This document shows positions 3,534 to 31,540 of a DNA stretch of 40,000 nucleotides, piece by piece; within the stretch, counting starts at the first letter, position 1; each line of letters begins with the position of its first letter. The translations under genes were made by a program, and so were the position numbers. This DNA comes from Desulfovibrio sp. OttesenSCG-928-I05 (GTDB lineage Bacteria > Desulfobacterota > Desulfovibrionia > Desulfovibrionales > Desulfovibrionaceae), in the NCBI GenBank assembly GCA_030266385.1, contig JAJDHY010000001.1:1-40000 (forward strand), in the 5' to 3' direction. Under the pieces are notes generated by a model, which worked only from the letters and a program-made list of their open reading frames with translations, made no database searches and had not been told where the DNA came from.

Positions 3534-3575
3534 CATACCTCTGCGTACCCTGACTTTTTTTTCGGGTCTGGCGGA
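3534..3575. repeat. attL-type direct repeat (ICE end distal to the tRNA)
   Basis: CATACC tct GCGTACCCTGACTT ttttttcgggtc TGGCGGA. It matches 31171-31206 in three blocks of 6, 14 and 7 nt. Confidence 0.7.
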
Positions 3576-4265: not shown

Positions 4266-4994
4266 ATGGCAACGGTACATTTTATCCAGCAAGGTAAGGG
4301 CGGCGTGGGCAAATCCATGATTGCCGCAATTCTTTATCAAGTCTTGCTCCACCTCGGCAAAGAGGTTGTCGCTTATGACACCGATCCCGTCAATGCCACC
4401 CTGACGGGCTTCAAGGAGTTTTCCGTCACCCGGCTGCACATTTTGAAGCAGGACAACATTGACGTCCGGGCCTTTGACGATCTTCTGGAAGGCATTTTTG
4501 AACTGCCCCAGGAAGCCCATGCCATTGTGGACAATGGCGCGTCAAGTTTCGTCGCCCTCGGCGGCTACCTGAAGGAAAACGACGTCATTCAACTGCTGGA
4601 AGACAACGGACACCGCGTTTTCCTGCATACGGTCATAACGGGCGGGCAAGCCATTCTTGATACGCTTGCCGGTCTGAACCTCCTGGTAAGCGGCTTTCCC
4701 AAGACGCCCATAGTGATCTGGTTGAATCACTACTTCGGGGAGATTCAGATAGACGGCAAGCCTTTTGAAACATTCAATATCTATAAAGAATACTCGCATC
4801 AGTTCCATGCCCTTGTGCCGATTCCGCAAGGCAATCAGGCCACTATCGGCAAAGACCTGGAAAACCTGTTTGCCAAGCGCCAAAGTTTCAAAACTGCTAT
4901 CAACTCCAGCCAGAGCATTGCGGTGCGCTCCCGCCTCATGCGGTATTGGAACGAACTGATTGCCGCTGTCGAAGCGGCGCAAATATCCGCGTAG
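4266..4994 (+). CDS. traL: TraL-like ParA/MinD-fold ATPase (RP4 TraL family)
   Basis: The N-terminus VHFIQQGKGGVGKS, then DTDPVNATL and DNGASSFV, closely match the RP4 TraL pattern. Confidence 0.9.
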   Translation: MATVHFIQQGKGGVGKSMIAAILYQVLLHLGKEVVAYDTDPVNATLTGFKEFSVTRLHILKQDNIDVRAFDDLLEGIFELPQEAHAIVDNGASSFVALGGYLKENDVIQLLEDNGHRVFLHTVITGGQAILDTLAGLNLLVSGFPKTPIVIWLNHYFGEIQIDGKPFETFNIYKEYSHQFHALVPIPQGNQATIGKDLENLFAKRQSFKTAINSSQSIAVRSRLMRYWNELIAAVEAAQISA

Positions 4995-5004
4995 GGGGGC
5001 TGGC

Positions 5005-5496
5005 ATGACAGAAGCTATGCAGACTCCCGAAGTGCCGCAAAAAGCAGCTGCCGTGGAAACTCCCGCCCCCGCTGCCGCCGAAACCGAAAAAGAGCCGCTT
5101 TTGCCTGATGGCATTGGGCTGTCCATTGAAAGCGTCCGTGATCTACTGGTGAAAATCCATGACTGCAAGGTATCGCTGGACGATCCGGTGCTGATGGTCG
5201 TTACGATGCTGAACGCCTACCTGGGGGAAGTCCAGACACTTCAAAAGAGACATGAGGCGGGTCTGTCCCGGCTCATGACCGACAAAACCGATGACTACAT
5301 GAAGGGCGTCAAAGAAGCGGTCAAGGCGTTGCAGGAAGGCCTTTCCTCGGCTTCGGTGGAAGGCATCAAGGCGGTTTTCAACGAGCATGATTCCCGCCTG
5401 AAAGCCTTCAAGAGCAATCTTTCCTGGCTTGCGGCCATTACCGCGTGTTCCGCGATTATCAACGTCATTGCGTTCGTGCTGATGGGGGTGCGCTGA
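5005..5496 (+). CDS. TraM-like protein (assigned by position), coiled coil with a C-terminal TM helix
   Basis: ATG at 5005 follows GGGGGG. Its stop overlaps the trbB start (TGATG). C-terminal hydrophobic helix LAAITACSAIINVIAFVLMG. Confidence 0.5.
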   Translation: MTEAMQTPEVPQKAAAVETPAPAAAETEKEPLLPDGIGLSIESVRDLLVKIHDCKVSLDDPVLMVVTMLNAYLGEVQTLQKRHEAGLSRLMTDKTDDYMKGVKEAVKALQEGLSSASVEGIKAVFNEHDSRLKAFKSNLSWLAAITACSAIINVIAFVLMGVR

Positions 5497-18979: not shown

Positions 18980-19163
18980 ACGCAACAATCATGCGCGGCC
19001 CATGAAGCACCCGCCGCGATCCGCGTCTGCGGCCCGTCGCATGGCGCGGCGTTTGATTCCCGTCCTGGTCGATGAACAGCAAGCCGTATCCGTGACAGAT
19101 CTGGTGGAAAATCGAATTCTCACAGTAAACGGCAAAGGAGAAGTAATGTATGCAGGGGAATAA
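18963..19163 (+). CDS. Possible small basic protein (66 aa) bridging traF and ardC
   Basis: Overlaps both neighbours. No motif. Coding status uncertain. Confidence 0.25.
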   Translation: MMGKSKRNNHARPMKHPPRSASAARRMARRLIPVLVDEQQAVSVTDLVENRILTVNGKGEVMYAGE

Positions 19164-20547
19164 CAACACATTTGCGTTTCACAAAGATTTGACCGCCACA
19201 ATGCGCGAAGGCTTACGCGGAAGCGGCTTGCCCTTCCAGCGCGAGACAACCGGGCAGTTGCCATATAACCAAGTCACCGGGACGCAATACAACGTCCAGA
19301 ACCTTATCCCGCTTGCCATCGCGGCGGAAAAGGCCGCAAAGGAACAGGGGATACCCGCGAAAGACGCTGATATGCGCTTTATGACGCTGAAACAGGCCAA
19401 TTCGCAAGGCTTGTCCGTCATGCAAGGGGCGAAGGCGACGAAGATAGCCTTCCTTACATGGACGGACAAAGAGCCTGTCTTGGGCCAGAACGGCGAACCG
19501 GAAGTAAGCGAAGACGGCAAACAGAAAATGCAGGCCGTACAACTGGACAAGCCGATATTAAGGGCCGGTAATCTCTTTCATGCCTGGGATATCAAGGGCA
19601 ACGGCTTGCAATACGGGCGCGGAAAGAGCGCGGAAGAAAACGAAGCCGCGCTTGACCGGGCGGAGGCCTTGATAAAGGCATCCGGGGCCGTCATTGTCCA
19701 TGATCCCAAGGTCAAGGAAGCGTTCTATGACCGCTTCAAAGATCGGATCAACATGCCGCCTGTTGATTCCTTTCCTTCGCGTGAAGCTCTGATAGGCGAG
19801 ACAGTGAACCAGCTTGCGCACTGGACGGGCCATGAATCCAGGCTTGACCGGCAAAGCGGCCCTAACGGTTCGTCATACCGGAGCCGGGAAGAACTGACTA
19901 CCGGCTTGGGGGCTTGGGCCGTCCTGAACTCCTTGGGCGTTACCGGCGCGACGTTTGACAGCCGCAACCGGCATGTGCCGGGAATGGATAAGCTGCTTGA
20001 AGGCAGTCAGTATGAGGCAATGCGCTGCTGCAAGGCCGCTGACCAGATACGCGATCACCTGATGGGTCTGGAGCGGAAAAAAGACATTACGGCGGAAGTT
20101 TCGCAGGAAGCGGAACTTGAAGCCGGTTCAAGGACTGTTACCGAAGGCAAGCCTACGCATGAAATGCCGAGTATGCAGGTTATGACGCCGGAACAGGAGT
20201 TAGCCAAGGCCATACAGGACGCGGGCCTGGAATTGGGCGGCAAACCTGTAATCTGGACGGGCGAAACGGTTGTGCTGGAAAAAGGCAAGGGCACGTATTC
20301 CGCAACGAAAGACGTAATACCGGAAGCGACAATACGGAACCATGAAACCGGCATAAGGGTAAGTTGGGTGGCGTCGGGGCACAAGCTCACAACGGAAGCC
20401 GTCAAAATGCAGGAGAAAAAGACGCAAACCGTTCGTAAGGAACGCCAGACAAAGCGCGAACAGGCGAAAGCGGCGGAAAAGAGCCTTGAAGCCAAAATGC
20501 CGCCTCCCGCCAAAAGCAAAGGCCAGTCCAGGGGGTTAGGCTTATGA
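19150..20547 (+). CDS. ardC: ArdC-like antirestriction protein with a degenerate metalloprotease motif
   Basis: The N-terminal ssDNA-binding pattern is present (LPYNQVTGTQYNVQNL ... MTLKQANSQGLSVMQGAK). The central ...NQLAHWTGHESRLDR sits where ArdC has HExxHWTGH. SD AAGGAGAA. Confidence 0.8.
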   Translation: MQGNNNTFAFHKDLTATMREGLRGSGLPFQRETTGQLPYNQVTGTQYNVQNLIPLAIAAEKAAKEQGIPAKDADMRFMTLKQANSQGLSVMQGAKATKIAFLTWTDKEPVLGQNGEPEVSEDGKQKMQAVQLDKPILRAGNLFHAWDIKGNGLQYGRGKSAEENEAALDRAEALIKASGAVIVHDPKVKEAFYDRFKDRINMPPVDSFPSREALIGETVNQLAHWTGHESRLDRQSGPNGSSYRSREELTTGLGAWAVLNSLGVTGATFDSRNRHVPGMDKLLEGSQYEAMRCCKAADQIRDHLMGLERKKDITAEVSQEAELEAGSRTVTEGKPTHEMPSMQVMTPEQELAKAIQDAGLELGGKPVIWTGETVVLEKGKGTYSATKDVIPEATIRNHETGIRVSWVASGHKLTTEAVKMQEKKTQTVRKERQTKREQAKAAEKSLEAKMPPPAKSKGQSRGLGL

Positions 20548-22494: not shown

Positions 22495-23103
22495 TTAATC
22501 TCTGAATATCGCGTAGCCGTTGCTGATTCTTGCGGAAGAATACCCGTCTATGAACAAATCACGGGCAAAGGCTTCATAATCGAAATACCGTGTCAGAAAA
22601 TCCGGCGCGTCATGCGGGATCATTTCGTCCGCCAGTTCGTAGGCGTAATCAAGCTCGCTGTCGTATATTCCGCAAAAGGCATCTTCAAATTCGGAAACGC
22701 AAGATGCTATGTCGTTGGACGAAAAAAGGCCGTAGTAGGCTGCGAAGGCTTCGCCGTGTTCTTCCAGGGCTTCCGCCAGTTCGCAAACATGGTCAAAACT
22801 GGCCCATTCGGAAATGTCGATGCCGTCAAAGCCGGAATAATCGTGTATGGCCCATTCTTCGGCCTTATCGCCGTACTTCTTCGCATAGGGGCTGGCGGCA
22901 AGCATATGATGGACTTCGCACCATACATGATCGACGCCGTAACAACAGGAAATCCAGCAACCGTGAAGGATTCCGCCGTTATAGTCTGAAAGGCTGGCTA
23001 CATATATTGACGGTTCATCCAGGTTTACGGCCTTCCCCTGGCTGTCACGGTTGCTGATGATGGGAAGGGGGCAATCCATAATAAGGTCGGTAGCTGCGCT
23101 CAT
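22495..23103 (-). CDS. ardA: ArdA antirestriction protein
   Basis: 202 aa starting at MSAATD (ATG 23103, SD AAGGAG). The IYVASLSDYNGGILHGCWI pattern and acidic composition are typical of ArdA. Confidence 0.9.
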   Translation of the reverse strand: MSAATDLIMDCPLPIISNRDSQGKAVNLDEPSIYVASLSDYNGGILHGCWISCCYGVDHVWCEVHHMLAASPYAKKYGDKAEEWAIHDYSGFDGIDISEWASFDHVCELAEALEEHGEAFAAYYGLFSSNDIASCVSEFEDAFCGIYDSELDYAYELADEMIPHDAPDFLTRYFDYEAFARDLFIDGYSSARISNGYAIFRD

Positions 23104-23141
23104 GTTCTTCTCTCCTTGGTGGTTTCCGCTATCTCCCCCCA

Positions 23142-23209
23142 ACATTTTCCCTGGCGGGTGGGGGTGCGTTCGCTTTTCACGACGCACCCCCGCACGGCGG
23201 GGAAAATGT
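23142..23209. promoter_or_regulatory. Long imperfect hairpin 39 nt upstream of ardA (possible ssDNA-promoter-like structure)
   Basis: The arms are ACATTTTCCCTGGCGGGTGGGGGTGCGT and ACGCACCCCCGCACGGCGGGGAAAATGT. 24 of 28 positions pair, the mismatches cluster centrally, and the loop is 12 nt. Confidence 0.35.
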
Positions 23210-23477
23210 GTACTCATCGGCCTGTGGGCCATACCGACAAGCCTTTGACCGCGCTTGCGCGTGTGGCCGCATGGACTCCGTGAAGAAGGGAATGGATTGT
23301 GACAACCGGAAGGAGAGAGGCCGAAGGGCGCGGAAGCGCCAGAGCGAAGCGGCGAAGCTGCACAAGCCCGTAGGCCGAACGTATGAGGATTGGCGCAATC
23401 CATGCGCCTTTGGCGCACCGCCGTAACGGAATACTTGCGGCCCCGTTTGTGGTTTGGTGTTCGGAAGTCAGGAAGTC

Positions 23478-23501
23478 TTTTGTGGCAGATTTGCCACAAA
23501 A
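23478..23501. promoter_or_regulatory. Perfect 10-bp palindrome (putative operator)
   Basis: TTTTGTGGCA gatt TGCCACAAAA, 42 nt upstream of the ATG at 23543. Confidence 0.4.
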
Positions 23502-24204: not shown

Positions 24205-24570
24205 TCAAGGAAGTTCGGTAAAATCGCCGTTTTGCAACATTGATTCAAGTTGCTGGTCTGTCAGGGAAAAAAGTATTTTCGCCAGTTTCTTCATTTCTCT
24301 TGTTTCGTCTTGGGCTATGTTGTCTCTGTCGGACTTGGCAAAGCCGTAGATAAAAAATGTTCGCTCCCCGGCCTTGAAACAGAGAATAACCCTGTATCCT
24401 CCCGATTGGCCTTCCCCCGGCCTTGCAATACGCTGCTTGAATACTCCTGCACCAAGGTCGGCGTCAAAATTGCCCGTTTCGATCTCTCTGACGGCTTCAT
24501 ACAGGGATCTATCCGGTATGCCTTCTTTACGAGTGAATCTGACAAACCATTTGTTTTTGAAAATCCGCAT
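24205..24570 (-). CDS. higB: RelE/HigB-family toxin
   Basis: 121 aa. KQRIARPGEGQSGGYRVILCFK...FFIYGFAKSDRDNI is typical of the RelE-like family that pairs with HTH antitoxins. The toxin-first gene order is the HigBA arrangement. Confidence 0.85.
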   Translation of the reverse strand: MRIFKNKWFVRFTRKEGIPDRSLYEAVREIETGNFDADLGAGVFKQRIARPGEGQSGGYRVILCFKAGERTFFIYGFAKSDRDNIAQDETREMKKLAKILFSLTDQQLESMLQNGDFTELP

Positions 24571-24652: not shown

Positions 24653-26344
24653 CTATCTCGACAATTCTTTCTTTTTCCGCTGCGGGCTTGGCCGCTCGGC
24701 TTCCCGTTCCTGATCAAAAATCAAACGGCCCTTGTCGGCCTTCACCCGGTTGCCCCATTTCTTTTGCGCATACAGTTGAGCAATCTTCTGCGCGGCCTCG
24801 TCATTGCCGGAAGAATAAACCTCGTTGCCGGTATCAAGTATCCGGCCTCCGGTTGGCAGGATGAAAATGACGGCTCCCTTGTTGTCAACGCGCCGGGTTA
24901 TCCCGTCCAGGTATGGAACGGCGGAACCACGCAATTTTTCTTCCTGGGTCAACTCGTCCATGCGCAAAAAGGCTTGAAGCTGGCGTTTCCCTTTTCGTGT
25001 CAGCTCGTCGGATTCCACAATGCGGGCTTGCTGCTCGGCTGCTTCGGCTTTGAGGGCGGCAAGGGCGGCGTAGTCCGGGCGGGCCTTGACCTGGCGCTGT
25101 TCATCTATGGCTGGCGCGGCTTCCGGCACGACAGCCTTTTTGCGCGACCGAAGCACGGCAAGGGCTTTTTCGTCACCGTCTTCGGCCCTCTCGCGCAAAA
25201 AGTCATTCCATGAATACTTGGACGCCTTGGAATAAAGCGCGTCCTGCCCCTTCTGGTTTTCGGCCTTGGCGGCGGCAATCTCGGCGGCTTCCTTCTTCTT
25301 GGCTATCCGGATCAGGTTTTGCCGGTTGCGCTTGTGGATGGTCAGCTTGTCCAGTTCGGCCCGCTTCCTTGCCCATTTGGCCCTGATTTCCTCAATGGAC
25401 TGCCTTTGTTGCTGCTTGGCGATTTCGGCGGCTGCGGCCCTGGCTGCGGCTTCCTGCTCATATTCGGCCCAAAGAGCCTCTTGGGCCGGGGAACGCTGAA
25501 CAGGCTTGCCCCTGTAGCGGTTGACCTCCCGCGCATCGGCCTTTTCCGGGGCGGCATACGCTCCAAAGCGTTTTTCTAGGCTCTTTTTGGACAAACGCCG
25601 GTCAAGTTCACTGGCTTTCATGCCGTGCTTGCCGTGCATATTTTTTATGGCAAGGCCGTTGTTCTGCGGCTTTATGACAAGACCATATTTCGCAAACTCC
25701 TTGTGCAAGTCCTGCCAGCCCTCGGCAGCGTCAAGGGCTTGTGCGATTTGCTCCTTGTACTGCTTCGCATAGGTGTCGAAAGACTCTATGCCCTGCTGCA
25801 ACTCTACGGCCTTGGCCTTCGCGTTGCCCTTCGCCTGTCCTTTGCTCTCCATGCCGTTGTCAACGGTCAAGCCGTATTCCTTTTCAAGCTGACGACAAAG
25901 CCGGTCACGTTTCGTATGGTCGTGGGAATGGTAATTGCGGTTGTGGGTGACGGGATGAATCAAATTGTAGGCAATCTGCAAATGAAGATTTGCCGTGTCG
26001 TTATGAACGGCGCAATGCCTCTGATGCTCGGAAAGCCCCAACACTTCGGCAAAACGCTGTTCAATGTCTTTCAGAATTACCGGTGTCAATTTGGCTTCGT
26101 CCTCCGGTCTGAAACTGATCACAAGATGATAGGTCGGGTTTGCCTTACTGCGGGTATTGAGCGCCTGGGTGTCCGTGGCCTCCGCTATCCCTTCCAGGTA
26201 GTCGTCGCCGCCGATGCAACCGGCGCACCACGCCATAAGGGGGATTTCCTTCTCGTCGGCGTACTCGTCAAGCCGCGCAAGGTATTTCGCAAGCCTTCCG
26301 TAATTGTCATTCGCCGGTTCGATGGGGATATGTCGGCTTATCAT
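24653..26344 (-). CDS. traI: MOBP-family relaxase (RP4 TraI-like)
   Basis: N-terminus MISRHIPIE...LAKYLAR (catalytic Tyr region) and HNDTANLHLQIAYNLIHP (His motif), followed by a long coiled-coil C-terminus. Confidence 0.92.
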   Translation of the reverse strand: MISRHIPIEPANDNYGRLAKYLARLDEYADEKEIPLMAWCAGCIGGDDYLEGIAEATDTQALNTRSKANPTYHLVISFRPEDEAKLTPVILKDIEQRFAEVLGLSEHQRHCAVHNDTANLHLQIAYNLIHPVTHNRNYHSHDHTKRDRLCRQLEKEYGLTVDNGMESKGQAKGNAKAKAVELQQGIESFDTYAKQYKEQIAQALDAAEGWQDLHKEFAKYGLVIKPQNNGLAIKNMHGKHGMKASELDRRLSKKSLEKRFGAYAAPEKADAREVNRYRGKPVQRSPAQEALWAEYEQEAAARAAAAEIAKQQQRQSIEEIRAKWARKRAELDKLTIHKRNRQNLIRIAKKKEAAEIAAAKAENQKGQDALYSKASKYSWNDFLRERAEDGDEKALAVLRSRKKAVVPEAAPAIDEQRQVKARPDYAALAALKAEAAEQQARIVESDELTRKGKRQLQAFLRMDELTQEEKLRGSAVPYLDGITRRVDNKGAVIFILPTGGRILDTGNEVYSSGNDEAAQKIAQLYAQKKWGNRVKADKGRLIFDQEREAERPSPQRKKKELSR

Positions 26345-26348
26345 GCCC

Positions 26349-26675
26349 TTAGGTGCCTATTTTCTTGATTAAAGTTTGAATGTCCATGCGGCAGGAGTCC
26401 AGTTTGCGCAAAAGATGATTGACCTGATCCCTTGGCGCGGCCTCATGGGCAATAGCCTGTTTCAGCAAGCCGCCGATCTGGCCTATCGCGCCCTTGAGGG
26501 CGCGTAATTCCATGCGTTCCTTCTCAAATTCAAGGCTTTTTACTGGCTGGCCCATGCTGGTCAGGCGTAGGAATTTTGATAGGGATAAGCCCGCCCTGGC
26601 GGCGTTCGCCTTTACTTCCCGATATTCCTCTTCCGTCAGGTACGTTGAAACGTGCATTTTTTTGCTTGGCATTGC
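26349..26675 (-). CDS. mobC: MobC-family relaxosome accessory protein
   Basis: Start taken at MPSKKMHVSTYLTEEEY. RHH-like N-terminus and the motif LRALKGAIGQIGGLLKQ. Stop is 4 nt before the relaxase ATG. Confidence 0.8.
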   Translation of the reverse strand, partial: AMPSKKMHVSTYLTEEEYREVKANAARAGLSLSKFLRLTSMGQPVKSLEFEKERMELRALKGAIGQIGGLLKQAIAHEAAPRDQVNHLLRKLDSCRMDIQTLIKKIGT

Positions 26676-27177
26676 GTTGTCCTTCAAACCATGCTTTGAC
26701 TTTTTCCTTGTCTGCCGCCCGAAAAACTCGCCAAGCGTATGCGCGGCCCTTTTCATCGTCTGGCGAGTGGTATTTGCCCACGGCCTTCCAGGTCAGGCCG
26801 TGCCGGGAAATTTCCTCTGCCAGTACCCAGCGGCCCCATAGCTCGTTGTATTCGGGATCAAGCAAGTCTTCCGGGTCGATCCCGAACTGCCCGCACCACC
26901 AGTTGTTGACTTGCCAAAGCCCGACGTCGAAACTTCGTGCGTTGTCCGCCACGGCTCCGCGTAGCAGGATCAGGGCGTCCGCCCTGGTTGCGGGGAAGTA
27001 AGAAACGCCGTTGATATTCAGGGCGTTCGGGTTCAAACGGGATTCATGCTTGGTCAAGGCTTCTTCCAGCCATTCCGGCACTTGCCGGTGATGCTGCGCT
27101 TCCGGTGGATATGCCTTCGCTGCCGCCGTAAACGGCACGAGGCAAACAAGCGCGATAGCGAGAACGTATTTCCGCAT
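26530..27177 (-). CDS. Lytic transglycosylase (TrbN/VirB1-like)
   Basis: Signal peptide, catalytic ES motif (LTKHESRLNPNA), and FDVGLWQVN. The 3' end overlaps mobC out of frame. Confidence 0.85.
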   Translation of the reverse strand: MRKYVLAIALVCLVPFTAAAKAYPPEAQHHRQVPEWLEEALTKHESRLNPNALNINGVSYFPATRADALILLRGAVADNARSFDVGLWQVNNWWCGQFGIDPEDLLDPEYNELWGRWVLAEEISRHGLTWKAVGKYHSPDDEKGRAYAWRVFRAADKEKVKAWFEGQRNAKQKNARFNVPDGRGISGSKGERRQGGLIPIKIPTPDQHGPASKKP

Positions 27178-27253
27178 TTTTTGTCCTTCTTTCTTAGCGT
27201 TGAGCCGTCAGGCGAATAAGCAAACCCCGTAGGGCCGGTCGGGAATAGGTTGC

Positions 27254-27285
27254 GAAGTAAGCTACTTCCCATGTCCGGCCCTCTT
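27254..27285 (+). promoter_or_regulatory. Candidate oriT nick region (inverted repeat plus RP4-like nic sequence)
   Basis: GAAGTA agc TACTTC, then CCATGTCCGGCCC. By my recollection, RP4 has an inverted-repeat arm ending CTACTTCAC followed by CTATCCTG/CCC. Confidence 0.35.
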
Positions 27286-27340
27286 CTGGTTCTGCTGGAA
27301 ATTGCCGACAGTTGCCGAAAACCGGGTGAAAACCGGACGG

Positions 27341-27440
27341 GCATCTTTTGGCATCTGTGGGCATCTTCCTGCATCTTTCAGCCTCTTAGGGCATTTGCGG
27401 GCCGCTGCTGGCCTCTGTTGGCCTCTTCCGGCAATGCGAG
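27341..27440. repeat. Ten tandem, strictly phased 10-bp repeats (GCMTCTNNNG)
   Basis: GCATCTTTTG GCATCTGTGG GCATCTTCCT GCATCTTTCA GCCTCTTAGG GCATTTGCGG GCCGCTGCTG GCCTCTGTTG GCCTCTTCCG GCAATGCGAG. Confidence 0.9.
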
Positions 27441-27532
27441 GGCGCTTTTTTCGCTTCACAGTGATTTTTCTTCCTGGGTCTGTCTTCAAGGCGGGAAATT
27501 GAGAAAGTCTTTCCGCCGCAGAAGCGTTTGCA

Positions 27533-27793
27533 TCACTCAAAATCAAGGTCGGTGAACTGAAAACCGGCGACGCCGGTATGGCAGTATTCGCCCCTGTGGT
27601 TGCGGATAAACAGGTGCTCCGCTTCCAGATCGGCAAGGGATAGCTCCCAACGGAACAGGGAAGGAACGGACAACTTTCTGACCTGATATTTGTCCACGGT
27701 GCCGGTTTTCCGCTGCTTGCTCCGCGCCCATTCAAGACGCTTTTCCAATGGCGAACTGACAACGAAAGGACGTATTCTCCCGCTATTGCTCAT
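27533..27793 (-). CDS. Hypothetical protein (86 aa)
   Basis: ATG at 27793 overlaps the upstream gene's stop by 11 nt. No recognisable motif. Confidence 0.5.
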   Translation of the reverse strand: MSNSGRIRPFVVSSPLEKRLEWARSKQRKTGTVDKYQVRKLSVPSLFRWELSLADLEAEHLFIRNHRGEYCHTGVAGFQFTDLDFE

Positions 27794-28952
27794 GGCTGTT
27801 TGCCCCGCCTTCACCGTGCCCCCCCATTTGCGGGCCTGGCTCCTTTTCCCTGTCGGGCCAGATATGTTGCCGGAAGTGCTGTCTAAGTCGGACTGCTGCC
27901 GGAATGGCAATGCGGTTGTCAGGCCCAAGTATTTCTTGGCGGGCGTCAGGGGTCAGGCTGGCGATCCAGGCGTCCGCTTCGGCTTCACGGCGAGCCTCAT
28001 AGGCTTTCTTCTCCCGGCGCGTGGTCGCTTCGCGGTCACGCTCGGCCTGTTCTGCGGGGGATATGTAGGCTGCGGGGCGGGGGTAATATCCTTGTGTCGC
28101 AAGGATTTTGAATACCCAATTCAGCGGAGTTGAAACGGGTTCGCCCTTGTGGGTGGTCATGCACTCGCGGGCAAGCTCCCATTCCGCATAGGTCAAGCCC
28201 TGCATGATATGCTCAAGCGTTTCACCTACCTGGGCGCGGCGTTGCATGATTTGCCGAATCTGAACCGTGCCGAAACCGACGCGGGCCAGTTCGGGCCAGT
28301 GAAAGGCTATGTCCTCTTCGGAAAGGGATTCCAGAAGTGCGCTATACCTTTTTGAATTTTCAGAAGAGATAGAAAGAATATTTCTATCTATCTTTTCTCT
28401 TAGAATAGAGGGGGCAAAATCGGCGTCAGGGTGGACGCCGGGGTGGACGGCAGGGTGGACGGGTGCGCAAAGGCATGGCCCTGCCGCTCTGATGTGGGGG
28501 CAAAGCATTTCTTGAATGAGGGTGAAGGTAACGCCCTGGCTGGTGCCTACCTTGGCCTGTTTGCGGCGTAAATAGCCGCGATTCACAAGACGCTCGACAC
28601 TTCGGCGGACGGCTCCGGGGGATCGTATCATTGAGTACACTCGCTCCAATTCGGCGGACAGTTGCTTGTACGGGGTCACGGTTGGCCCGATGGCAAGCAA
28701 CAGCCCGATAATGTTGATTTGTGCGGCTGAAAGCCCTTTGCGGCATGAAATACGGTTGATGTCGTCGGGGATTTCAGGATGGACGCCGGGGTGGACGTCA
28801 GGGCGGACGGGGGGCAGGGTGGACGCCAGGGCGCACGTCAGGTCGCACGCTAGGGTGGACGGGTGGACGTCAGGCTGGACGCCAGAATGGACGCCAGGGT
28901 GGACGCCCGCATGAGAGCCGCCAGGGGCGGTAATCATGCTTGCCGCGCTCAC
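27783..28952 (-). CDS. Winged-helix DNA-binding protein, Rep-like, with VHPG-type repeats
   Basis: The GTG start overlaps the alpA stop (GTGA). MarR-like wHTH (YKQLSAELERVYSMIRSPGAVRRSVERLVNRGYL). Repeats V-H-P-G flank it. Confidence 0.7.
   Translation of the reverse strand: MSAASMITAPGGSHAGVHPGVHSGVQPDVHPSTLACDLTCALASTLPPVRPDVHPGVHPEIPDDINRISCRKGLSAAQINIIGLLLAIGPTVTPYKQLSAELERVYSMIRSPGAVRRSVERLVNRGYLRRKQAKVGTSQGVTFTLIQEMLCPHIRAAGPCLCAPVHPAVHPGVHPDADFAPSILREKIDRNILSISSENSKRYSALLESLSEEDIAFHWPELARVGFGTVQIRQIMQRRAQVGETLEHIMQGLTYAEWELARECMTTHKGEPVSTPLNWVFKILATQGYYPRPAAYISPAEQAERDREATTRREKKAYEARREAEADAWIASLTPDARQEILGPDNRIAIPAAVRLRQHFRQHIWPDREKEPGPQMGGHGEGGANSHEQ
28426..28466. repeat. 12-nt repeat cluster 1 inside the Rep-like CDS (3 units, GGTGGACG core)
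   Basis: GGTGGACG at 28430, 28442 and 28454. Confidence 0.85.
28776..28912. repeat. 12-nt repeat cluster 2 inside the Rep-like CDS (about 12 units)
   Basis: Minus-sense units are GTCCACCC and variants. The spacing is 12 nt except for one 8-nt and one 16-nt unit. Confidence 0.85.
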
Positions 28953-29161
28953 TTCCTGCCCATGCCAAGGGAGATTATGAGGGCGCGTATATCTTCAACG
29001 CGCCAGACGGTTATCTTCGGGCTGATTTTGATAGGCTGCGGAAACCTCTTTTCCTTAACTCCATCCCACCATGTAGACTTGCTGATGGGTATAAGTTCAA
29101 GAACTTGGGCAATGCGTAAAAAACCTGTCGGTGGCAATTTTTCCAATAAGTCATTGGACAT
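28949..29161 (-). CDS. alpA: AlpA-family excisionase/regulator
   Basis: MSNDLLEKLPPTGFLRIAQVLELIPISKSTWWDGVKEKRFPQPIKI..VWRVEDI is the classic AlpA pattern. SD AAGGAG. Confidence 0.85.
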   Translation of the reverse strand: MSNDLLEKLPPTGFLRIAQVLELIPISKSTWWDGVKEKRFPQPIKISPKITVWRVEDIRALIISLGMGRK

Positions 29162-29350
29162 GGTAGGCTCCTTCGGAAATGATTTCCCTAGAGCTACCAT
29201 GCGTTTCTGGAGAAACAGGGGCGAAACGGCAAAATGGGAGTTTTTACAAGGTCAGAGTATGTCGAGGTATGCAAAAATATTTTTGTTTTTGTATTGACAG
29301 GGTTTGCATGATTTTCTCACGGTATGGCAGGGTAAATTTTTCTGCGACGG

Positions 29351-29663
29351 GAAAAATGAACGGTCAGCATGGGTACACATTGATCGTTATTTTTCGTTGG
29401 TATGATTCACTATTGTGGGCTTACCCCGTTCTTTCCTGGGTACACTTGGGGCTATCCGGCCTTCTGTTCCTGGGTACACTTGGGTACACCCTGGTTCCGG
29501 CTTGAGGCGGCCTGACTGCTGCGGGCTTCGGAACCAAAAAAGAACGGTCAACGTGGGTACACATTAACCGTTCTTTTTTGTTGCTATTGCTAGGTTTTGT
29601 GAGACTTAGGCTTGCCTTCCTGGGTACGCTTTGGGCTATGCGGCCTTCGATGCCTGGGTACAC
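29351..29663 (+). repeat. Two tandem ~184-bp modules carrying seven TGGGTACAC sites
   Basis: TGGGTACRC at 29370, 29437, 29471, 29481, 29554, 29621 and 29655. Each module starts with an A-run/T-run-flanked hairpin that has the motif in its loop. Confidence 0.85.
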
Positions 29664-31006
29664 TCCGAGGTAAAGTCTGGCAGGGTCAAAGCCCTGATCT
29701 GCTCGGTTTGGTTTTCCCGGCTGGCGGTAGCCTTCAAATTGTCCAAATAATCCGCGTAATCTTGCATCATTTCAGTGCGAGAAGGCAAAAACTCAGCCTT
29801 GTCGTATGTCGCCTTTGCGGATTCTTTTTCAATCGTATGGGACATTTGCTTGTAGATTACGTCCGAACTGTACTCAAACTTTTCTTTGCAGTTGGTAACG
29901 AAGGCATGACGCCAGCCATGTCCGCACATTTCGCCCTTGTAGCCGATACGGGCAAATACCTTATTCATGGCCTCAATGGTGATATGGCCTGTCTGCGCAA
30001 GCTGCGAATGGAAAATATACTTATTCCCGCCAGTGTAACCGTGCAGTTCTTTCAAAAGGCTGACGGCTTGCTTTGAAAGCGGCACGATGAAGTCTTTCCC
30101 GTTCTTCATCCTCTCGCCGGGGATTAGCCATTGGCTTGCGGCCCAATCTATTTCGCTCCATTCACCCTCTACCATGTGAGAGGGGCGCAAAAAAACGTAA
30201 GGCAAAATTTTGGCTGCATAGCAGACTTCAATGCTTCTGCGGCTCTTGGGTTTATCCACTGAACCTTGGGCGTATTGGTCAATATGCAGTAAAAGATGCC
30301 CGATTTTTTCGGGATCGGTAATGCTCGGAAGGCTGTTGTTCTTGGAAGGCTTGGTGAAATTCAAGCCCTTCCAGATCGCATAGGCCGGGTTATGTTCGCA
30401 CTTACCCAAAGCAACGCCAAAGTTGAAAATGCTGACTGTCTTTTCGGCAACCTTCTTTAAGGTCGTGTATTTGCCCGCGTCTTCAAGCCCTTGAAACAAA
30501 GGGCGTATATGCTCCTGCGCCTTCACGTCCTTGATAAGAAGGTGCCCTAACGGCTGGATCAGGTGTTTCCTGATCCGCTTGGCTTCGGCAATAAACGTCT
30601 TCTTTTTCCACTTTTTTTGCACGTCGGAAAGCCAATCTTCGGCTATGGCCCCCAGGCTGTCCGGGTGGCTCTCGCCCCTGGCGATACGCCTTTCTTCGGT
30701 GAAAACGGCAAGCTGTTCTTCGTGCTTGGCCTTTCGTGCCTTGGCGGGGTTTTCACCTCTGTCTAGCTGCTGCCGCAACTCAAAGTTGGCTTCCCGCGCT
30801 TCTTTCAGGCTCATAAATGGAAAATTGCCAAGAGTCAGGTTTTGTTCCTTCCCCATATAAAAGTATCGTGCCCGCCAGATTTTATTTTGGCTGGTGACGA
30901 AAAGCATAAGCCCATTGCCGTCGGACAGTTTGACAGGGGTTAGTTTGCCGGTTTTTGTGTTCAGTTTGGGCTTTGCCGCCTCAATTCCTTTGATAGTCAA
31001 CGCCAT
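29636..31006 (-). CDS. int: Tyrosine integrase, P4-like (N-terminal arm-binding domain)
   Basis: 456 aa. N-terminus MALTIKGIEAAKP...LSDGNGLMLFV. C-terminal catalytic HGWRHAF and a downstream Tyr. Adjacent to the tRNA. Confidence 0.95.
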   Translation of the reverse strand: MALTIKGIEAAKPKLNTKTGKLTPVKLSDGNGLMLFVTSQNKIWRARYFYMGKEQNLTLGNFPFMSLKEAREANFELRQQLDRGENPAKARKAKHEEQLAVFTEERRIARGESHPDSLGAIAEDWLSDVQKKWKKKTFIAEAKRIRKHLIQPLGHLLIKDVKAQEHIRPLFQGLEDAGKYTTLKKVAEKTVSIFNFGVALGKCEHNPAYAIWKGLNFTKPSKNNSLPSITDPEKIGHLLLHIDQYAQGSVDKPKSRRSIEVCYAAKILPYVFLRPSHMVEGEWSEIDWAASQWLIPGERMKNGKDFIVPLSKQAVSLLKELHGYTGGNKYIFHSQLAQTGHITIEAMNKVFARIGYKGEMCGHGWRHAFVTNCKEKFEYSSDVIYKQMSHTIEKESAKATYDKAEFLPSRTEMMQDYADYLDNLKATASRENQTEQIRALTLPDFTSECTQASKAA

Positions 31007-31028
31007 TTCCGATGTCCTCCCGCAAAGC

Positions 31029-31088
31029 TGGGTAGAGTTAAAAAATCCGAACGGTCATTTGCCAACTATACCCAGGATTGTACCCAGG
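31029..31088. promoter_or_regulatory. Integrase-motif sites between int and the att core
   Basis: TGGGTAGAG (31029, + orientation). CCTGGGTATA and CCTGGGTAC in inverted orientation (31067-31076 and 31080-31088). A third GAACGGTCA at 31049. Confidence 0.45.
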
Positions 31089-31126
31089 CAAGCGGGGGAT
31101 TTATTCGGATTACATCGGATAGCATC

Positions 31127-31171
31127 AGACAAAAGAAAGCCGGGAAGCCTTCTATAACAAGACTTCCCGGC
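31127..31171 (-). terminator. Rho-independent terminator for tRNA-Asp, supplied by the ICE side
   Basis: Minus strand reads GCCGGGAAG - 15-nt loop - CTTCCCGGC, then TTTCTTTTG. Confidence 0.5.
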
Positions 31172-31199
31172 ATACCAGGGCGTACCCTGACTTGAAAAC

Positions 31200-31206
<7 letters not shown>
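31171..31206. repeat. attR-type direct repeat (tRNA-proximal ICE end)
   Basis: CATACC agg GCGTACCCTGACTT gaaaac TGGCGGA. The TGGCGGA is the complement of the tRNA 3' end TCCGCCA. Confidence 0.7.
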
Positions 31207-31276
<70 letters not shown>

Positions 31277-31310
31277 AGGTAGTGCGGTGGGTCACCCCAA
31301 CCGAGATGGG

Positions 31311-31339
31311 AATATGCCCTGAACCCCCTCGATTGTCAA
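31311..31339 (-). promoter_or_regulatory. Sigma70-like promoter for tRNA-Asp
   Basis: Minus strand reads TTGACA - 17 nt - CATATT, about 35 nt upstream of the tRNA 5' end. Confidence 0.45.
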
Positions 31340-31540
31340 TACATTTTCTTTTTTTTCATGAAAAAAAATTTACTTCTATAACCATGTGTAATATATGTAT
31401 TTTTTAAATAAAATATGAACAGCTGTACCTTGATCTGAGAAACTAGCGGACAATACTGCACATCCCTTCACGGTTGAACACGCCGAACATCGTCGAAATG
31501 CCGGGTCCATCCGTTGCCGGTTCCACGCGCTGGCCCCTGC

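Follow-up and report, generated by a model that had tools for sequence, protein, structure and literature searches.

The window analyzed here, a 40,000-nucleotide (nt) stretch of Desulfovibrio sp. OttesenSCG-928-I05 (contig JAJDHY010000001.1, positions 1 to 40,000), carries an integrative and conjugative element (ICE) in which a single gene, here called X, harbors two arrays of a short DNA repeat on either side of the segment coding for a winged helix, the larger of them translated in two reading frames. These arrays are candidate sites for protein X itself, and together with a neighboring A+T-rich palindrome they may constitute a maintenance site, most likely a replication origin located inside the gene of its own initiator. 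We favor this reading, though only tentatively, over the alternatives weighed below.

Repeat arrays and palindrome inside gene X

The features of gene X, from the N-terminal to the C-terminal coding end, are the following.

27783-28937, minus strand: coding sequence of protein X, 384 amino acids (aa) from the ATG at 28937 (list of open reading frames, ORFs)
28861-28904, minus strand: N-terminal array, units 1-4, in frame (V-H/Q-P/S-G/D)
28809-28860, minus strand: N-terminal array, units 5-8, shifted frame (STLA-CDLT-CALA-STLPP), carrying a conserved CxxxC
28773-28808, minus strand: N-terminal array, units 9-11, in frame again (VRPD-VHPG-VHPE)
28494-28745, minus strand: winged-helix coding segment, residues 65-148 (AlphaFold2, AF2; predicted local distance difference test, pLDDT, above 90)
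28425-28460, minus strand: internal array, 12-nt units GTCCACCC-TGCC/CGGC/TGAC, all three in frame and oriented like the N-terminal array
28345-28410, minus strand: A+T-rich stretch of 66 nt, directly 3′ of the internal array, GC content 0.30 versus 0.59 for the gene
28367-28389, minus strand: inverted repeat AGATAGAAA-TATTC-TTTCTATCT, the local form of a family palindrome
27843-28370, minus strand: segment coding for an all-helical C-terminal domain, residues 190-365 (AF2, confident)

Eleven units with the core GTCCACCC or close variants of it occupy 28773-28904 on the minus strand, inside the X ORF, and measure, in gene sense, 12, 12, 12, 8, 12, 12, 12, 16, 12, 12, and 12 nt. Because unit 4 has only 8 nt (28861-28868), the frame shifts by -4, and because unit 8 has 16 nt (28809-28824), it is restored; the N-terminal array is accordingly translated as GVHPGVHSGVQPDVHP / STLACDLTCALASTLPP / VRPDVHPGVHPE, and the internal array as PVHPAVHPGVHPD. 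The first-pass annotation, made from the letters of the window, had described a repeat read in two frames through compensating -4/+4 indels, and the unit lengths and the ORF translation bear this out; its “about 12 units” come to 11, and the three more units that it saw beyond the winged-helix segment are indeed present at 28425-28460. Tandem Repeats Finder, a check that it had proposed, reports both 12-nt arrays, at 28775-28907 (11.1 copies, 68% matches, 12% indels, score 90) and at 28427-28462 (3.0 copies, 87% matches). Exact copies of the 8-mer GTCCACCC number 8 in the window, all on the minus strand and all within X, compared with an expectation of 1.21 and with 0 of 100 shuffles that reach 8. 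Scanned with a position weight matrix derived from the units, the rest of the window contains no site with a score of 14 or higher, and iteron-like sites outside the gene are absent from the window and few in the other loci.

Conservation of the repeats and the palindrome

First, the repeat persists as DNA across loci and reading frames. The comparison set comprises 28 genome loci, mostly from metagenome-assembled genomes of Desulfovibrionaceae, and 11 further loci with close and intermediate homologs. Every locus has its own core (GTCCACCC in the window; ATGCACTC, GTGCAACC, ATGCAGTC, ATGCACCC, CACGGACT, and others elsewhere), and within each locus this core is common to the N-terminal array, in both of its frames, and to the internal array some 300 nt away. 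Among nine close relatives, whose proteins are 75-98% identical, the variable positions of the unit are identical in both frames (3, 5, 6, and 11), and among the 38 shifted units there is no variation at positions 1 and 7 and a single deviant unit at each of positions 4 and 10; these four (1, 4, 7, and 10) are the third codon positions of the shifted frame, all 4-fold degenerate (Ser TCN, Thr ACN, Leu CTN, Ala GCN). At 4-fold sites, pairs of loci differ on average by 0.124 within the N-terminal array and by 0.135 within the internal one, versus 0.337 over the remainder of the gene, a 2.7-fold lower divergence of the synonymous sites of the arrays, and 15 of 24 such sites are invariant in the arrays versus 24 of 91 elsewhere (Fisher p = 0.0015). 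In a recoding test, for which a matrix was built from the in-frame units only and the shifted units were scored against 5000 synonymous recodings of their peptide, the actual shifted-frame DNA outscores the recodings in all 7 of 7 loci; recodings that match the real score number 0 of 5000 in four loci, the array of the window included, and 4, 9, and 110 of 5000 in the other three. A motif of the plasmid pDMC1, GCAGACAAA, is present in 12 copies, all of them on the sense strand, at spacings of 13, 17, and 26 nt, flanking the winged helix on both sides and read in all three frames. The locus-specific cores, the low synonymous divergence, the recoding test, and the pDMC1 spacing together support the view of the first-pass annotation that the DNA repeat, and not the peptide, is the conserved entity. 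Peptide repeats kept without the nucleotide motif, which it had named as grounds for abandoning that view, were looked for among the relatives and not found.

It is nonetheless worth considering whether such repeats need any function in cis. A coding minisatellite, homogenized by slippage and gene conversion, with selection acting only on the frame, the cysteines, and the disordered tails, would be consistent with the predicted disorder of these tails, with a unit number that shifts by about one among close relatives, and with the patchy variant cores, which resemble conversion tracts (GTGC in locus L033; GTAC in loci L034 and L047). We regard this explanation as distinctly improbable, since homogenization would have to cross a unique 312-base-pair (bp) spacer to the internal array in every locus, and since the single orientation and the two-sided layout are kept from ICE to plasmid forms despite unrelated cores and periods.

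Second, the succession of in-frame, shifted, and in-frame units keeps its position among relatives as distant as about 40% identity; units of 8 or 20 nt bring about the shift, and units of 16 or 28 nt the return. The shifted frame turns xTGC cores into cysteine codons, and 84 of 93 relatives have a CxxxC upstream of the winged helix, the nine others being mostly truncated gene calls; C65 is invariant family-wide, and C146 is present in at least 90% of relatives. To judge from this distribution, the excursion looks ancient and kept for the sake of the protein, in which the cysteines possibly form a candidate metal site or a disulfide. Comparison of unit number and frame among relatives, another check suggested at the outset, thus finds the frame layout kept and the number nearly constant, differing by only about one unit among close relatives; this constancy goes against the proposal in the first-pass annotation of a slippage-prone tract that tolerates frame excursions. 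Programmed frameshifting was also considered and was dismissed, as the ORF runs without a break in every relative.

Third, the repeat and its presumptive reader appear to have changed together. In L034, 8 of about 14 units, and in L047, 8 of about 13, have exchanged the core GTCCACCC for GTACACCC, a C-to-A change that spans both frames and both arrays; in frame it leaves Val unaltered, and in the shifted frame it replaces Ser by Tyr. The same two loci are the only close relatives with an altered recognition helix, which reads AVRQIVGRL and AVRQSIERL, respectively, versus AVRRSVERL in the other 8 of 8 loci; R112Q is thus found in 2 of 2 loci with a switched core and in 0 of 8 without. Arginine usually prefers guanine and glutamine adenine, a preference with which R112Q paired with C:G-to-A:T agrees. 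The covariation suggests that X reads its own repeats, although, since L034 and L047 may share one ancestral event, it is suggestive and not statistical. The earlier idea that the repeats are binding sites embedded in the gene of the protein that may bind them therefore gains indirect backing from the sequences, whereas its label of the gene as Rep-like finds no match among known initiator families. A core switch that coincides with a recognition-helix substitution also argues against a minisatellite.

Finally, the A+T-rich stretch encodes PSILREKIDRNILSISS with rare A/T-rich codons, and nowhere in the gene do 4-fold sites diverge less than over residues 176-200 (0.083). The peptide PSILEEIDRKNLSISS, which lies here, is conserved more strongly than any other in the family, yet it is predicted to be disordered. 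The family-wide form of the palindrome is AGATAGATAGA-N(3-11)-TCTATCTATCT, with one covarying pair that is T:A in 11 loci and C:G in 7 and that forces Ile/Thr and Ile/Val exchanges in the protein. In L009 and L010 the palindrome is kept as DNA despite a different peptide (QIDKESSIYL). The plasmids pDMC2, pDMC1, and pDRET01 have mismatch-free arms of 11 bp with loops of 11, 5, and 3 nt, respectively, and the pDMC1 palindrome shows a compensatory double change. In RNA folding the palindrome is the centroid hairpin, with z = -0.65 for its 101-nt context, a value that speaks neither for nor against an mRNA structure. That a palindrome with compensatory changes is conserved independently of the peptide is a further point against a minisatellite. 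By analogy, element-specific arrays beside an element-universal palindrome would follow the logic of an origin, in which the former are initiator sites and the latter is a site for melting or for a host factor.

Protein X and its family

The N-terminus of X reads MITAPGGSHAG, and the gene calls of its relatives, among 169 homologs, begin at the MITAP position. The earlier length of 389 aa is obtained only from an alternative start, the GTG at 28952; from the ATG the protein has 384 aa. An AF2 model built with 94 relatives (mean pLDDT 80.5) provides the structure prediction that had been called for and places the winged helix between the two arrays. Residues 1-60, a low-confidence tail, correspond to the N-terminal array, residues 107-119 form the recognition helix with R112 within it (AF2 secondary structure), and residues 150-190, a low-confidence linker, correspond to the internal array and the A+T-rich stretch. 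Both arrays hence fall in predicted disordered segments that flank the winged helix; as the DNA must stay repetitive, the encoded tails would be disordered and of low complexity.

A Foldseek search with the full model returns matches only for the winged helix, of the generic MarR/PadR type, and family members show weak Pfam hits to PaaX, MarR_2, and HTH_12. The C-terminal domain, which by tblastn coverage is conserved better than the rest of X between ICE and plasmid relatives, has no match in PDB or BFVD when modeled alone (pLDDT 85). X has no family hit in Pfam, NCBIfam, or PHROGs, a profile search of PDB sequences returns noise only (glutaminyl-tRNA synthetase, E = 0.17), and a Pfam search of ten long plasmid-type relatives for domain fusions gives weak helix-turn-helix (HTH) hits only. 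The label “Rep-like” of the first-pass annotation was thus an inference rather than an observation, and no known initiator family fits. An exhaustive HMMER search collects 1023 cluster representatives at E <= 0.001, of which 402 at <= 1e-10; judged by these searches, the X family is sizeable and undescribed.

Comparison with known origins

An origin inside the gene of its initiator is a kind already known from lambda and Stx O and from RepC. In the former, the iterons and an A+T-rich tract lie centrally within the O gene and are translated as a linker, and extra iterons add residues (PMC7466680). In anatomy only, gene X is like a lambdoid O in that arrays, a 30%-GC tract, and a palindrome lie inside the ORF. 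The iterons of the lambda O gene, however, number four to six, are 19 bp long, and form a single block in one frame, whereas X has 11 + 3 units of 12 bp that flank the DNA-binding segment and are read in two frames; O is partnered by P, whereas the neighbors of X are int/alpA and nikA/relaxase. X has no Pfam hit to Phage_rep_O, and 0 of 94 relatives match a phage replication family. In repABC plasmids, oriV lies within repC, an essential A+T-rich region is kept there against the codon content, and the operon is headed by ParA (PMC3155836). The plasmid relatives of X likewise follow ParA. In contrast to X, repABC has a separate ParB (RepB) and a repC without iteron arrays; X has no sequence relationship to RepC, and no ParA adjoins it in the window.

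Many origins of the RepA_N type lie inside repA. RepA_N initiators (pSK41, pTZ2162, PLE RepA) combine an N-terminal DNA-binding domain with a host-specific C-terminal domain without homologs, and their origins consist of short repeats with inverted sub-repeats (PMC7145576). X resembles them in its N-terminal DNA-binding domain and its C-terminal domain without a detectable match, but its fold by Foldseek is a MarR-like winged helix and not DnaD-like, and neither X nor any of 94 relatives has a RepA_N hit (PF06970). In the element SGI1, an HTH_17 gene, S004, and rep form one operon, excision and replication are coordinated, int and xis are present in the integrated element, and direct repeats accompany A+T-rich regions (PMC7433901). 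The HTH_17/AlpA-X gene pair of the X loci recalls S004-rep. Unlike in X, the SGI1 oriV, with four 17-bp iterons and a DnaA box, is intergenic and downstream of rep, and SGI1 Rep has a RepA_C-type domain. Compared with iteron Reps in general (17-22-bp repeats, a DNA unwinding element, DnaA boxes), X has direct repeats and an A+T-rich tract, but a 12-bp period and no recognized DnaA box. The Rep_3 and RepA-RepE-pi architecture (WH1+WH2) does not describe X, which has a single winged helix and no Pfam or NCBIfam hit. New here, then, are the protein family, the arrays that flank the DNA-binding segment, their reading in two or three frames, and the conserved excursion that yields CxxxC.

Plasmid relatives and the possibility of a centromere

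A tblastn search finds X homologs in ten Desulfovibrionales plasmids and nothing in 50,697 phage records. Several points, some of them from these plasmids, weigh against the favored reading. The homolog lies just downstream of a ParA gene (~260-270 aa) in 9 of 9 plasmids examined, and 13 of 15 plasmid-type relatives read begin with a short, mostly basic N-terminal peptide of a ParA-stimulating kind (for example, MAKKKRRSLYDTL, MSKKRKGFLEL, or MAAKKRLTMFDAM). Neither the sequence nor the fold of X corresponds to a known initiator, no DnaA box was recognized, and the 12-bp period in split blocks is nearer to the tubC, parC, and stbDR centromeres than to the usual 17-22-bp iterons. The cumulative GC skew, whose minimum at X in the D. 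bizertense plasmid (~29.0 kb; X at 28947-30479) and, weakly, in pDRET01 counts in favor of an origin, cannot tell an origin inside X from an origin beside a par locus, and in pDMC1 it is monotonic and uninformative. Few synonymous sites enter the counts (17, 7, 5), and their invariance could owe something to codon bias; gene conversion alone could homogenize the repeats irrespective of frame; and the covariation of R112Q with GTAC may be a single evolutionary event.

It is a serious possibility, though one that we consider somewhat unlikely, that the arrays are a partition centromere and X a new centromere-binding (ParB-like) adaptor that coats the split arrays and so builds the segrosome. The position next to ParA and the basic peptide, a mark of ParA partners, are what make it serious; three further translated plasmid copies have comparable basic N-termini. 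ParA would move the X-array complex in the plasmids, and in the ICE this role would fall to the ParA-like product of 4266-4994 or, as with StbA, to no NTPase at all. In the TubR/tubC, ParR/parC, and StbA/stbDR systems, a small helix or winged-helix protein coats split direct repeats with a period of about 9-12 bp, and the complexes both segregate DNA and repress their own operon (PMC6009700; 10.1101/2022.04.29.490116). The period of about 12 bp, the split array, and the small winged-helix reader of X are like those of TubR/tubC (PMC6009700), and there is a likeness to StbA/stbDR, which lies beside relaxosome genes (10.1101/2022.04.29.490116). These centromeres, however, are intergenic and upstream of the operon, and their binders are small, lack the 180-aa C-terminal domain, and work with TubZ, ParM, or no motor at all, whereas in the plasmid relatives of X a ParA is placed upstream. 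X itself does not fit the TubR type, as it has 384 aa with a C-terminal domain, intragenic repeats, and no TubZ in its neighborhood. Nor does X of the window have the position or the peptide of a ParB, following as it does alpA and beginning with MITAPGGSHAG, whereas the plasmid relatives have both; no ParBc or ribbon-helix-helix hit was found in X or its relatives.

Against a centromere, both a neighboring ParA and the N-terminal peptide are missing from the ICE forms, and pDRET01 and the D. bizertense plasmid already possess separate ParA/ParG-type modules in addition. A centromere has no need of a family-wide A+T-rich palindrome common to elements with differing cores, and it would leave these plasmids without a candidate initiator, since the four annotated ones have no initiator candidate other than X and no annotated Rep. 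In the plasmid forms, the functions of origin and centromere may fall together.

Several observations on individual plasmids may be added. pDMC1, which has no annotated Rep, carries two ParA-X modules, at 842-2155 of locus L038 and at about 47950-48927 of L046, and the GCAGACAAA repeats of the first copy have a period of 13 nt. In pDV1 of D. vulgaris Hildenborough (L039, 1740-5135), the ParA-adjacent homolog has 1131 aa, is full of differing 12-nt and 9-nt arrays (encoding VTPD, HVTP, and similar peptides), and has no A+T-rich palindrome; a paper on randomly barcoded transposon sequencing (RB-TnSeq) of D. vulgaris contains nothing on pDV1 maintenance genes. In the D. bizertense plasmid NZ_CP090010.1 (L043 and L044), the gene order of about 1-24 kb is repeated at 50-72 kb, as is the course of the GC-skew curve, which suggests a large duplication or an assembly artifact.

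A possible mechanism and its implications

If the arrays and the palindrome form an origin, the following sequence of events can be envisaged. Co-expression of int, alpA, and X would couple excision to the synthesis of X. X molecules would then coat the 11 + 3 units of the same orientation that flank the winged-helix segment, and the resulting complex would stress the 30%-GC stretch and the inverted repeat with its 9-11-bp arms, leading to melting or extrusion, whereupon the conserved C-terminal domain would recruit host replication proteins. An ancient -4/+4 pair of unit lengths would have put four units into the second frame, and the resulting CxxxC would since have become fixed. In the plasmid relatives, the bound complex probably also, or instead, serves as a partition complex.

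A bolder proposition, which we consider unlikely, is that X founds a new Desulfovibrionales family of mobile-element maintenance proteins, with about 1000 clusters at 50% identity, in which the complete cis site, composed of element-specific arrays and a universal palindrome with 11-bp arms, lies within the protein's own frame and is read in two or three frames, initiator and (by way of the N-terminal peptide added in plasmids) ParA adaptor are one, and the origin is also the centromere. Should our interpretation hold, it would name the replicon or partition determinant of pDMC1, pDMC2, pDRET01, perhaps pDV1, and a widespread group of ICEs and integrative and mobilizable elements (IMEs), none of which has an annotated initiator today, and would be useful toward vectors for sulfate reducers. 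It would also provide a natural case of dual-coding constraint, in which a DNA lattice that binds protein determines the residues of two disordered tails and a conserved frame excursion draws a functional CxxxC from the same repeats, as well as a specificity pair, Arg112 with the GTCC core and Gln112 with the GTAC core, for the co-evolution of a winged helix and its repeats.

The mobile element and the gene neighborhood

The window holds the genes by which an ICE is recognized: an integrase at a tRNA site, an excisionase, a relaxase, a coupling protein, and type IV secretion genes. The right-hand part of the element contains the following.

31200-31276: tRNA-Asp, next to the tyrosine integrase gene
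29636-31006: tyrosine integrase (family hit)
28949-29200, minus strand: alpA, excisionase-type HTH (Pfam Phage_AlpA, E = 1e-7), directly upstream of X; the int-alpA-X synteny is conserved

Other genes of the element encode NikA, a MOBP-type relaxase, a TraG-type coupling protein, ArdC, and a topoisomerase, and its conjugation genes encode TrbI, TrbL, VirB8, CagX, and a VirB4-like protein. The alpA stop codon overlaps the GTG at 28952, which suggests that alpA and X form one operon. The gene order is int-alpA-X-small ORF-(SLT)-nikA-relaxase in the close clade and HTH_17-X-NikA/MobC-relaxase, with overlapping genes, in divergent loci.

This neighborhood raises the question of whether the repeats and the palindrome serve instead as a transfer origin (oriT) or relaxosome site, or as an autoregulatory operator of an alpA-X-(nikA-relaxase) operon. 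In divergent loci X overlaps nikA-relaxase, with no intergenic room for an oriT, and an inverted repeat within an A+T-rich region is a typical oriT feature. The last unit, CATCCTGA, bears a possible resemblance to the MOBP nick core, YATCCTG. Yet the same arrays and palindrome occur on relaxase-less, non-mobilizable plasmids, the window has a separate 10-nt repeat array upstream of SLT-nikA-relaxase, and an operator does not need 14 sites over 480 bp inside an ORF. Either role is therefore highly improbable.

The separate array consists of ten tandem 10-nt units, GCCnnnAGAK, at 27339-27433 (minus strand), between the small ORF after X and SLT-nikA-relaxase, and similar arrays occur in L030 (4464-4543) and L032 (2235-2274). 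It is a candidate oriT or relaxosome accessory site; the inverted repeat expected at a MOBP oriT was sought in 27100-27600 and none was found. The small ORF directly after X (85 aa, 27533-27790, minus strand) has no Pfam or PHROG hit; an ORF of 70-86 aa is syntenic at this place in 8 of 9 close-clade loci with gene calls and absent in L035.

A ParA/CbiA-like ORF of 242 aa lies at 4266-4994 (plus strand), near the left end of the element and 24 kb from X, and is followed by an ORF of 178 aa without a family hit (4960-5496, plus strand). In the excised circle the ParA-like ORF would lie a few kb from int-alpA-X, and its product could be a partner of X.

Allowing at most one mismatch, GTGTACCCAGG occurs in seven copies between int and alpA (29368-29663, minus strand) and in two further copies between int and tRNA-Asp (31066-31088, plus strand); at up to two mismatches there are 15 hits versus 6.2 expected, and 0 of 100 shuffles reach 15. 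It is found at the equivalent place in L029-L031. These copies could be arm-type sites of the integrase or regulatory sites. The repeats upstream of alpA (GTGTACCCAGG, CATACCCTGAC) show no clear covariation with the intragenic core and were therefore treated as separate features. Over 26000-31500, the only Rfam match is the tRNA.

A 14-nt direct repeat, GCGTACCCTGACTT, is present at 3543-3556, near a step in GC content at about 3.5-4 kb, and at 31180-31193, just past the 3′ end of tRNA-Asp; its two copies are candidate att ends, which would imply an ICE of about 27.6 kb. Here, TACCCTGAC is similar to the repeat unit CACCCTGAC. Cargo or accessory genes encode a RelE-family toxin (24205-24570, minus strand), ArdA (22495-23499, minus strand), and an ArdC-like anti-restriction protein (19150-20547, plus strand).

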